From: an uncultured Candidatus Saccharibacteria bacterium
GTDB lineage: Bacteria > Patescibacteriota > Minisyncoccia > Phycocordibacterales > UBA918
Direction of reading: 5' to 3'
NCBI GenBank assembly: GCA_964521645.1
Contig: CAZFSB010000003.1
Span: forward strand, 1-51,705
Length of the DNA stretch: 51,705 bases
Within the stretch, counting starts at the first letter, position 1. Every line of letters starts with the position of its first letter. The translations under genes and the position numbers were made by a program. A model generated the notes under the pieces. It saw nothing but the letters and a program-made list of their open reading frames with translations. It was not told the origin of the DNA and made no database searches. This document shows positions 8,648 through 15,131 of the stretch, piece by piece.

Positions 8648-8710
8648 GCGGGTTAGCATACCACTTGTGTGGTGAAAGTAAAAACCTCGAAACCGCTCCT
8701 TTGTACCACT

Positions 8711-8829
8711 AAACCATTTCCGACCATGTCGCCCTCCGGCGGGGCGACATTAACGCTTCGCCGAAGACTTTTCCTAGAAAAAGACCAAGCTCTTCGGCTC
8801 CAGAGTTTCGGAAATGGTTTAATGGTACA
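8711..8829 (-). ncRNA. Candidate structured RNA (three-way junction) in the ligA-gatC spacer, class unknown
   Basis: A 21-bp closing helix (8711-8731 with 8809-8829) is fully paired only on the minus strand, where it uses a G.U pair. It encloses hairpins GCCGAAGA...TCTTCGGC and ATGTCGCCC...GGGCGACAT. Confidence 0.35.
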
Positions 8830-13563: not shown

Positions 13564-14397
13564 TTAATAGAAACTAAAAAGCGTGAGGACATTGAGCTTA
13601 GTGAAGAGAATGACGAGACTGCTCGCGACCAGAAATGGCGCGAACGGTACCTCGCTTTTCATTGTAAGAGCTTTCCCGGGTAAATGTAAGTGTGCTTTTC
13701 CCCTACTGAAGCGTGCGAAGGCCAAAAGAACCAAACTGATGGCCGCACCGATCCAGAACGACAGCACGACAAAGGAGAAGACGAGGGTCGGCCCAGCTAG
13801 GAGTCCGAGCGGAAAGGCCAGCTTCACATCACCAAAGCCGAGCCACTTGCCACTGGAGATCTTCCAGAGGAGGTAAAAGAAGCCCGAACCGGCGGCGGCG
13901 GTCGCCACACTCCAGCCGAGATCGTGCCAGGTCGACAAACCTTGCCAGATATCGAAGAAAAGGAGCGCCAAGACCGCCGCCGCCAACACCCCGGTGAGCT
14001 GGTCGGGGATAATGAAGTGGTAGAGGTCGTAGACGGTGATGACGACCAGCGTAGCGAGAATGAACCACAAAAGAAGCAGCGGCACTATTTCGAGCGTGAG
14101 GGTGAGCGAAAGCGCGAAAAGCAAGCCCGTGACCAATTCTACAAAGAAGTAGCGGGGTGTGATGCGACAGCCACAGGTGCGGCACCGGCCACGCAGCGCG
14201 AGGTAGGAGACAAGTGGAAACAGCTCGTACCAAGAGAGGCCGGTGCCGCACGAGAGACAGTGTGACCGCCCCGCGAGCGACTTCCCCGTATGGAAGCGGT
14301 AAATGTATACATTGAGAAAGCTGCCGATGATGATCCCAAAGCCAAAGGCGATGACTTGGAGTAGCCAAAGGGGCAGTAACGAAAGTTCGATGAACAT
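13564..14397 (-). CDS. pilD: Prepilin peptidase / N-methyltransferase PilD (A24 family)
   Basis: Has CLSCG...CRTCGC zinc motifs and multiple TM helices. The start MFIELS at 14397 is preceded by TGCTATACT and 7 nt. Confidence 0.85.
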   Translation of the reverse strand: MFIELSLLPLWLLQVIAFGFGIIIGSFLNVYIYRFHTGKSLAGRSHCLSCGTGLSWYELFPLVSYLALRGRCRTCGCRITPRYFFVELVTGLLFALSLTLTLEIVPLLLLWFILATLVVITVYDLYHFIIPDQLTGVLAAAVLALLFFDIWQGLSTWHDLGWSVATAAAGSGFFYLLWKISSGKWLGFGDVKLAFPLGLLAGPTLVFSFVVLSFWIGAAISLVLLAFARFSRGKAHLHLPGKALTMKSEVPFAPFLVASSLVILFTKLNVLTLFSFY

Positions 14398-14404
14398 TGC
14401 GAGT

Positions 14405-14413
14405 AGTATAGCA
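14405..14413 (-). promoter_or_regulatory. Extended -10 TGCTATACT, 7 nt upstream of the pilD ATG
   Basis: The reverse strand reads GTCTGCTATACTACTCGCA-ATG. Confidence 0.5.
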
Positions 14414-14433
14414 GACGAGACGGGTCTACAAGC

Positions 14434-14521
14434 AAAAAAAGCCGCCAACATAATGAAAGCGAACCATTCCCCAAATGTCGTGCGCAGCACGGGTGAGCCT
14501 CATTATGTTGGCGGCTTTTTT
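14434..14521 (-). repeat. Structured element copy B (22-bp A/T-flanked stem enclosing a 43-nt core); also terminator-like
   Basis: AAAAAAAGCCGCCAACATAATGA ... TCATTATGTTGGCGGCTTTTTT. The core is homologous to copy A on the opposite strand. Confidence 0.6.
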
Positions 14522-14534
14522 GTGTGATAGACCT

Positions 14535-14626
14535 CCCTAAAACCAGCGGTGCGTCGAAGACTCACCGGCCCTACGGGCAGTATTTTGGGGGATGGTTCGC
14601 TATCAACGCACCGCTGGTTTTATGGG
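14535..14626 (+). repeat. Structured element copy A (16-19-bp stem enclosing a homologous core), overlaps the pilin stop codon
   Basis: TAAAACCAGCGGTGCG ... CGCACCGCTGGTTTTA. The core is GACTCACCGGCCCTACGGGCAGTATTTTGGGGGATGGTTCGCTA. Confidence 0.6.
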
Positions 14627-15036
14627 CACTCGAATTCACCCACCAGAAGCGCGTCGGGTATCTCTCTACGATTACCCACACTATCAACACACCAGTGCGC
14701 GGTGTTCATCGGAACCGAAATGGCAAAAGCAGTGGTATCACTGCGACAGGTCAGCGTACTTGAGGCAAACGAATTGATCGACGCGATAGAGCGCGCAATA
14801 TCGGCCGACTGGGTAACCCCATTTGAGCCACACACCACGTCGTAGGTGAGCGTTTGGATATTCTCCACCTCGGCTCGTTTGGAGATGGCGTCCATTTCCG
14901 TGGTGATCTTGGCGTTGATACCCTGTACTCGCGCGTCGTTGAGCGAGGTAAGGACGACCGCTGCCAAAATACCAATGATAGCAATGGTGATGAGGAGTTC
15001 GACCAGGGTAAAGCCGGCTTTTGCTGTCGGTCTCAT
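14620..15036 (-). CDS. pilA: Type IV pilin (second PilA-like paralogue)
   Basis: Reads MRPTAKAG|FTLVELLITIAIIGILAAVVLTSLNDAR, with a C-terminal Cys pair. TATAAT lies 7 nt upstream of the ATG. Confidence 0.85.
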   Translation of the reverse strand: MRPTAKAGFTLVELLITIAIIGILAAVVLTSLNDARVQGINAKITTEMDAISKRAEVENIQTLTYDVVCGSNGVTQSADIARSIASINSFASSTLTCRSDTTAFAISVPMNTAHWCVDSVGNRREIPDALLVGEFECP

Positions 15037-15049: not shown

Positions 15050-15131
15050 CACGACCAGGTGACTAGTTTTCCCCAGATACAAACAAAAAACCGCCCGAAG
15101 GCGGTATTTTTGATCAAATGACTACATCAAA

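Follow-up and report, generated by a model that had tools for sequence, protein, structure and literature searches.

A genus-restricted family of hairpin elements with conserved tips and copy-specific stems in a Candidatus Saccharibacteria genome

REP, BIME and REPIN elements, which are associated with RAYT transposases, are described (PMC3116915, PMC3337134, PMC3733652) as short, extragenic, hairpin-forming and multicopy sequences. They are placed after genes, often as inverted doublets, they persist vertically, and they have been credited with terminator or mRNA-stabilising effects. Bidirectional intrinsic terminators, the other close parallel, lie between genes and have a stem that contains G+C, flanked by an A run and a T run, with a loop that is usually 3-8 nt long. 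The non-coding elements of CPR/Patescibacteria are almost uncharted. Here we describe a family of elements, designated X, from the type IV pilus locus and other gene ends of a Candidatus Saccharibacteria genome. X resembles the REP elements in all of the above respects, but the conserved part of a REP is its stem, whereas in X each copy has a stem of its own and conservation is seen in the tip.

The window, that is, the whole 51,705-nt stretch of DNA analysed, carries on its minus strand and in this order pilC (17232-16015), pilin1 (15608-15132, with its own ordinary terminator at 15105-15090), the type IV pilin-like gene pilin2 (14620-15036, with a TATAAT box 7 nt ahead of its ATG) and the prepilin peptidase-like gene pilD (13564-14397). 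The pilD ATG (14397-14395) has its own -10 box, TATACT (14410-14405), from which it is separated by 7 nt. A first-pass annotation had placed two inverted copies of an element with a common core between pilin2 and pilD. Both copies, A and B, are present, 13 nt apart, and their loops are inverted copies of each other. An inverted-repeat scan returned a core-to-core inverted match of 22 nt (14454-14475 with 14584-14605, 91%), and the 18-nt core TTTGGGGNATGGTTCGCT has two exact matches in the window, one per strand, against 0.13 expected, a count that was reached in none of 100 shuffles. Folding of A and B on both strands gave z values of -6.1 to -7.8 relative to shuffled sequences, none of 200 of which equalled the native fold. 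On the mRNA strand the two copies fold as two separate hairpins.

Copy A (14535-14626) was assigned to the minus strand, which is the pilin mRNA strand, from a G.U wobble in its outer stem P1 and from the conserved clamp. On this strand it reads 5'-P1 / UAGCGA-ACC / AUCCCCCAAAAUACU / GCCC-GUA-GGGC / C-GGU-GAGUCU / P1'. The 3' end of pilin2 runs into the element, and the overlap with the pilin stop codon that had been annotated is confirmed, given that the P1 arm at 14603-14625 spans the TAA at 14622-14620. The partner of this arm lies at 14535-14557 (23-nt arms, 91%) and is followed on the mRNA strand by UUUUAGGG, a weak U tract. The conserved core (14558-14602) matches the covariance model with 59.7 bits and contains the inner helix P1a (14564-14566 with 14594-14596), a tandem mismatch (14562-14563 opposite 14597-14598), the hairpin P2 (14568-14578) and a conserved single strand (14579-14593). 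A CTGGGGAAAA box occupies the -35 position of the pilin2 promoter. The sequence at this position, CTGGGGAAAAC (window positions 15066-15076, minus strand), resembles the conserved single strand of the element, TTTGGGGAA; this may be chance.

Copy B (14434-14521) has its clamp orientation on the plus strand and is thus antisense to the pilin and pilD genes. Its outer stem consists of AAAAAAGCCGCCAACATAATGA (14435-14456) and the perfectly complementary arm TCATTATGTTGGCGGCTTTTTT (14500-14521); in the inverted-repeat scan these 22-bp perfect arms lie inside arms of 34 nt and 85%. The conserved core (14457-14499, plus strand) matches the covariance model with 52.3 bits and comprises the clamp AAGCGA (14457-14462), P1a (14463-14465 with 14492-14494), the single strand AUUCCCCAAAUGU (14466-14478), hairpin P2 (14479-14491) and the GA dinucleotide at 14495-14496. 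On the mRNA (minus) strand copy B is a 22-bp hairpin followed by U7, and its end is 24 nt from the pilD -10 box, so that its description as a U-flanked terminator-shaped hairpin just upstream of the pilD promoter proved correct. The inner hairpins, GCCC-TAC-GGGC in copy A and CGTGC-TGC-GCACG in copy B, likewise differ in sequence yet pair, as had been noted. The outer stems had been described as completely different and both perfectly paired; their sequences are indeed unrelated and the 22-bp stem of copy B is perfect, but that of copy A has one C.A mismatch (a G.U wobble on the opposite strand) and one bulge.

Copies A and B belong to a lineage-restricted family not previously described, X, which is confined to the genus. 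The first-pass annotation had not recognised the motif, and no described family in Rfam matches it: in a search of window positions 14000-15000 against Rfam 15 at E<=10 the sole family returned was the terminator-like sRNA sau-19, which scored 39 and 34 bits (threshold 80) and matched nothing but the outer stem of copy B, and the ten loci with other X copies gave nothing at gathering score. The further search for copies of the core that the annotation had proposed was productive within the genome, among its congeners and on one marine metagenome contig. The genome of the element (G000; 0.96 Mb, 57 contigs, 98% complete) holds 10 copies, all intergenic: the doublet B/A in the window (contig C3), three copies together in the gap that separates a GH18-like gene from umuC (C9), and single copies between the divergent genes ruvA and rpsT (C7), upstream of rplJ (C35), after efp and facing rpsR-ssb (C30), on C38, where the small hairpin of the copy is replaced by an insert of ~70 nt, and at the end of contig C47. 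Inverted doublets are found at two loci (A/B on C3 and C9_1/C9_2 on C9), and clusters contain two or three copies. Most copies of X lie just 3' of gene ends, in either orientation, with the clamp strand co-directional with the neighbouring genes in about 5 copies and opposite to them in 8. The element had been described in the pilin-pilD gap, but it is not specific to that gap: it is present at six other loci in the genome, near efp, rplJ, rpsT/ruvA, umuC and others, and in both orientations relative to genes. Such a distribution speaks against a switch devoted to read-through into pilD.

A covariance model built from the genome's own copies (R1) detected single copies in 6 of the 127 other genomes of the genus, and the model rebuilt from 14 members (R2) matched 9 of the 127, among which G138, G031 and G047 gave weak matches only. 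Copy number is 10 in G000 versus 0-3 in its congeners, about 8% of which carry X. An order-level model search of 150 sampled genomes yielded two weak matches, both lacking an outer stem and neither of them member-like, and an exact-pattern scan of 185,000 species genomes yielded none. Nine pattern matches in viral contigs, none full-length under the model, were taken as chance. A pattern scan of metagenomes gave at least 120 matches; among the 80 examined, one, in a marine GOS record, was a real member.

The X module is a structured segment of ~45-50 nt at the tip of a long, copy-specific hairpin. The outer stem P1 is 13-25 bp long with a sequence unique to each member. The inner helix P1a has 3 bp or more and occurs as ACC:GGU, GUC:GAC, AUC:GAU, GCC:GGC or CAC:GUG, and the small hairpin P2 (4-5 bp with a 3-nt loop) as GCGC-UAC-GCGC, GCCC/GGGC, GUGC/GCAC or CCGC/GCGG. 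The conserved single strand of 10-15 nt reads UUUGGGGAAK on the strand of the first-pass annotation. On the clamp strand the core is 5'-(U)AGCGA-ACC-AUUCCCCAAA-linker-GCGC-GUA-GCGC-(C)GGU-GAGUC(U)-3', with the clamp formed by a C:G pair and then either tandem G.A/A.G or two Watson-Crick pairs. In a MAFFT alignment of 18 members, which was not fitted to any model, pairing amounts to 87.6% for clamp/P1a and 97.2% for P2, with double changes in 10 of the 11 pairs; slid controls, in which partners were shifted by 1-3 columns, are 26-46% paired. The model-fitted alignment of 14 members is 98.2% paired. Given just the trimmed core, RNAalifold returns P2 and nothing else, as the 3-bp helix depends on its P1 context. 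The core is a selected single-strand structure, both inner helices of which keep their pairing through double changes.

The covariation originally read as the mark of a selected structure holds for the inner helices but not for the outer stems, which do not form one covarying helix. The outer stems are unrelated across all members and, judged from their sequences, are constrained only to pair. In BLAST searches each outer-stem arm matches its own partner only, save for a 16-nt coding-like match of the arm of copy A. This arm segment, AAAACCAGCGGTGCG (14539-14554), has exact matches of 14-16 nt in G000 at C4:26752-26767, C5:19574-19587, C2:5675-5688 and C48:2352-2367; the four sites are coding-like and form no hairpin, and a 16-nt match is unexpected in 1 Mb. 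A role of the arms as guides was considered and rejected, given that matches are confined to own partners and that the 16-nt match was taken as chance.

The selected strand is probably the complement of the one on which the element was originally read. Isolated outer-stem mismatches are C.A or A.C on the original strand, and hence G.U on the other, by 9 to 1 (p = 0.02), and a looser hand tally of about 15 to 2-3 runs in the same direction. Inner-helix G.U pairs at positions 5:47 and 30:38 are seen in the clamp orientation only. The UC/UC loop of the original strand becomes GA opposite GA, which is a stable tandem mismatch, on the other strand in 11-12 of 18 members, the pairs there being Watson-Crick in 6. 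These three lines of evidence, from outer-stem mismatches, inner wobbles and GA/GA, point to the complement strand, and they fit RNA and single-stranded DNA alike. In the clamp reading copy A is probably sense, inside the pilin2 3' UTR, and copy B probably antisense to the genes.

Comparison with relatives showed what is conserved at a given site. In G038 the order is pilC, pilin, pilin, element, pilD, with the element oriented as copy A. The G038 element shares with copy A the clamp and the rare GCCC/GGGC form of P2, and the cores are ~84% identical in a hand alignment; its outer stem has nothing in common with that of copy A. The neighbouring proteins are 57% (pilin2) and 68% (pilD) identical, at a nucleotide identity of 64-67%. 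Given that the core is kept while the neighbouring genes diverge and the stem is unrelated, we conclude that purifying selection acts on the core sequence and selection for pairing only on P1. At the place of copy B, G038 has a plain 20-bp terminator hairpin (GACAGACAAAAGGCGCCCGC-GAAG-..., L006 1560-1600), which directly precedes a TTATACT -10 box and the pilD ATG. In both G045 and G039 the gap from pilC to the pilin contains an oppositely oriented copy, of the AUC:GAU subtype, and X is found in the type IV pilus locus of four genomes. In G115 and on the marine contig a copy lies between hisS and an exonuclease gene, with unrelated outer stems. After efp, G000 has X, whereas the terminator found there in G115, the genome closest to it, is a plain one whose stem differs; as a test for an empty site this comparison is not decisive, intergenic DNA being saturated at this distance. 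After hisS, by contrast, G115 has X and G000 has another module, Y, in a similar hairpin. Family X is thus conserved at the sites that it occupies, while the choice of sites varies.

A strand-neutral scan of G000 for long perfect inverted repeats with loops of 25-170 nt revealed several more families with unique stems and conserved loops. Families V (C1:14834-14960 and C6:12305-12422), W (C5:12198-12292) and Y (C5:11479-11583, C6:8020-8122, C46:2085-2185, C46:269-369 and C21:5875-5963) have unique 15-24-bp stems and share with X the basal clamp (U)AGCGA-NNN...NNN'-GAGUC(U). A search with this clamp pattern gave 10 matches versus 0-5 for 35 permuted clamps. Stem wobbles in the sister families fall on the clamp strand (6 G.U versus 0 C.A), a count biased by two members that came from a G.U-tolerant scan. 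Family Y has a G-rich, quadruplex-like loop and lies just after hisS, where relatives carry X. It is possible, if on the unlikely side, that X, V, W and Y make up a new class of strand-specific hairpin-tip elements of Patescibacteria, in which a constant clamp carries interchangeable structured cargo and which occupy long unique gene-end palindromes or generate them by fold-back copying; one module could then take the place of another at a given site, as after hisS, with X in G115 and Y in G000.

Two other families were noted in the same genome. Family U, with one copy in the window (8710-8821) and others at C30:6033-6143, C6:32872-32998 and C14:19504-19619, has unique 12-21-bp stems and a conserved loop of ~85 nt with ctggagccgaagagc and cttcggcgaagcgtta. 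Family Z (C32:2150-2228, C42:3047-3121, C20:11518-11597 and C41:2664-2747) has unique 15-25-bp stems and a G-run-rich loop, GGAGGGCGGTACTAGGGGCGGTGGGCG, which could form a G-quadruplex. At C36:6-270, downstream of a tRNA-Ser(cga) gene, come in this order a terminator hairpin, the last 18 nt of the tRNA in inverted copy, a G+C-rich body of ~100 nt and a direct copy of the tRNA 3' end.

Nearly all outer stems of X are flanked by an A run and a T run and so have the shape of a bidirectional intrinsic terminator, and most of the outer hairpins lie directly downstream of a gene and shortly ahead of the promoter that follows. The loops are 43-110 nt long, and a terminator consensus scanner calls neither copy A nor copy B. 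The conserved 45-nt tip is more than an ordinary terminator needs. The reading that we tentatively favour is that X works at the RNA level, as a terminator or 3'-end hairpin whose tip is a conserved module, and that it has multiplied in a REP-like manner. X would act as RNA and in cis, with the outer hairpin ending or insulating transcription and capping the 3' end: copy A would do so in the pilin2 3' UTR, and copy B would be a U7 terminator ahead of the pilD promoter. The conserved tip may be a docking site for a protein or for a tertiary contact, and the unit would have multiplied among the gene-end hairpins of G000 in the manner of REPs. We infer RNA, rather than single-stranded DNA, as the active form, termination or stabilisation as the function, and this mode of spread. 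Given the mixed orientation of the copies, a purely cis-acting, strand-specific RNA role fails for some of them unless antisense copies are transcribed on their own.

The main alternative, which we consider rather unlikely, is that X is a selfish miniature mobile element that acts as single-stranded DNA in the manner of REPs or MITEs, with the ~50-nt core as the mobile unit. The core would land in long gene-end palindromes, or build them by fold-back copying; its structure would be the recognition site of a transposase, and any terminator effect would be incidental. The excess of copies in G000 over its congeners, the difference in presence at the orthologous efp and hisS sites of closest relatives, the two orientations and the clustering are all consistent with mobility, as are the AGCGA...GAGTC ends that at least three sister families share inside unique stems. 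The inverted copy of the tRNA-Ser 3' end that lies downstream of that gene indicates that inverted copying of flanks happens in G000, and G.T wobbles and tandem G.A pairs are stable in DNA hairpins too. G000 also has a single-copy RAYT-like gene (C35:637-1359, 240 aa) with a Y1 (HUH) transposase-like product, the best match of which is the REP-associated tyrosine transposase model at 61.8 bits, under the cut-off of 80. This gene is, however, not flanked by the element. Y1_Tnp genes, in two size classes (~150 aa and ~225-240 aa) and in up to 16 copies, are present in 79 of the 128 genomes of the genus including G000, but in only 2 of the 9 other carriers of X versus 78 of 127 (61%) in the genus, so that co-occurrence does not support a link of X to RAYT. 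There is no conserved terminal repeat or direct target duplication, and no site turned up that had the same stem but was empty. The retention of ~84% core identity (hand alignment) by single syntenic copies, beside genes at 64-67% nucleotide identity, points instead to purifying selection by the host.

That the copies are independent sRNA genes of ~90-130 nt, each with a minimal promoter and a built-in terminator and acting in trans through the C-rich single strand UUCCCCAAA, for instance through base-pairing to G-rich sites in mRNAs or titration of a protein, is improbable. Multicopy sRNA families with C-rich loops are known from other bacteria, and in G039, G045, G118 and the marine contig the strand-specific wobbles track the motif and not the genes beside it. 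Several copies, the two hisS-linked orthologues among them, have a TAnnnT box 0-6 nt ahead of the element on the clamp strand, but the promoter signal is not significant (-10-like boxes just upstream in 5 of 15 copies on the clamp strand versus 2 of 15 on the other, by hand tally). The complement TTTGGGGAA and similar sequences are not enriched in the genome (9 versus 7 expected; for the 8-mer, 25 versus 29) and none is at a gene start, and copy A, inside the pilin2 transcript, has no room for a promoter of its own. The idea implied by the first-pass annotation, an attenuator with an aptamer embedded in the terminator, through which a ligand or a protein would control how much transcription continues from pilin2 into pilD, would explain the conserved junction within a terminator stem, for which the HMP-PP (thiS) riboswitch offers a parallel (PMC6478431), and the recurrence of X in four type IV pilus loci. 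We consider it very improbable: pilD has its own promoter 7 nt ahead of its ATG, a perfect 22-bp stem would form whatever the tip does, and the elements lie on either strand and mostly at gene 3' ends. A riboswitch reading in general was rejected: such an aptamer would lie in sense in the 5' leader of a constant class of genes, whereas the contexts of X are pilin/pilD, efp, hisS, GH18/umuC, rplJ and ruvA/rpsT, on both strands. Just as little credence attaches to a double-stranded DNA site for recombination, inversion or regulator binding that is linked to pilin variation. The inverted doublets A/B and C9_1/C9_2, the copies that across genomes flank either side of the pilins in opposite orientation, and the CTGGGGAAAA box at the pilin2 promoter would suit such a site, but compensatory changes in helices of 3-5 bp and strand-specific wobbles are not expected of a duplex site, in no genome are the pilins flanked by copies on both sides, and the 13 nt between A and B hold nothing to invert.

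In this genome of 1 Mb, dozens of intergenic gaps are given to long hairpins with conserved tips rather than conserved stems. Purifying selection on X is clear at the type IV pilus locus, and the type IV pilus is central to the epibiotic life of these bacteria and to their uptake of DNA. If the tip binds a factor or marks transcripts, X would amount to a novel level of control at gene ends, in organisms that have very few regulators. If X is mobile, it would follow a new logic for miniature elements, that of a conserved loop and a unique stem. Should the class of clamp plus cargo prove real, it would represent a mode of spread and of terminator evolution that has not been described for REPs, MITEs or known non-coding RNAs. 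Either way, a covariance model and a set of natural stem variants are at hand for assays of termination and stability.

Several known systems resemble X in part. The HMP-PP (thiS) riboswitch (PMC6478431) likewise has conserved structured nucleotides nested in a terminator hairpin and is easily taken for a plain one, but X has no constant gene association, occurs on both strands and mostly at 3' ends, and has an outer stem far too stable to switch. TIGR stem-loop arrays with Tas, the report of which mentions parasitic bacteria including Patescibacteria (PMC12045711), have variable palindromic stems around loops with short conserved motifs, as does X. Their loops are variable spacers between boxes of 2-3 nt, in arrays beside a Tas gene, whereas the whole loop of X is conserved and its copies are scattered; a search of G000 for a Nop domain gave no match. 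In retron ncRNA (msr-msd), as in X, long specific inverted repeats (a1/a2) close a structured RNA. The Ec86 retron RNA may have UAGCGA just after a1, like the clamp of X, although a paper on retrons did not confirm this AGC context. X is at most half as large, lacks an msd hairpin and is multicopy, and no match to a reverse transcriptase (RVT_1) was obtained in G000, which is 98% complete. The tandem sheared-type GA opposite GA beside C:G in 11-12 of 18 members recalls a kink-turn or box C/D-type motif, but the hand pairing has no 3-nt bulge, the site is plain Watson-Crick in 6 members, and a search for an L7Ae-family protein in G000 gave no match. Assignment to the MITEs was rejected, the flanking inverted repeats of X differing in each copy and no direct repeats flanking them.

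The REP elements and the bidirectional terminators come nearer. X differs from the former, beyond its unique stems, in having no consistent GTAG or CGTC tag and in persisting in genomes without a Y1 transposase. With the latter it has in common the A run, the G+C-containing stem and the T run between genes, and plain terminators take its positions in relatives, but in place of a short loop the 13-25-bp stem of X closes a loop of 43-110 nt with a conserved, covarying three-way fold. None of the compared systems fits X as a family, and those closest to it in behaviour are the REP elements together with the bidirectional terminators.
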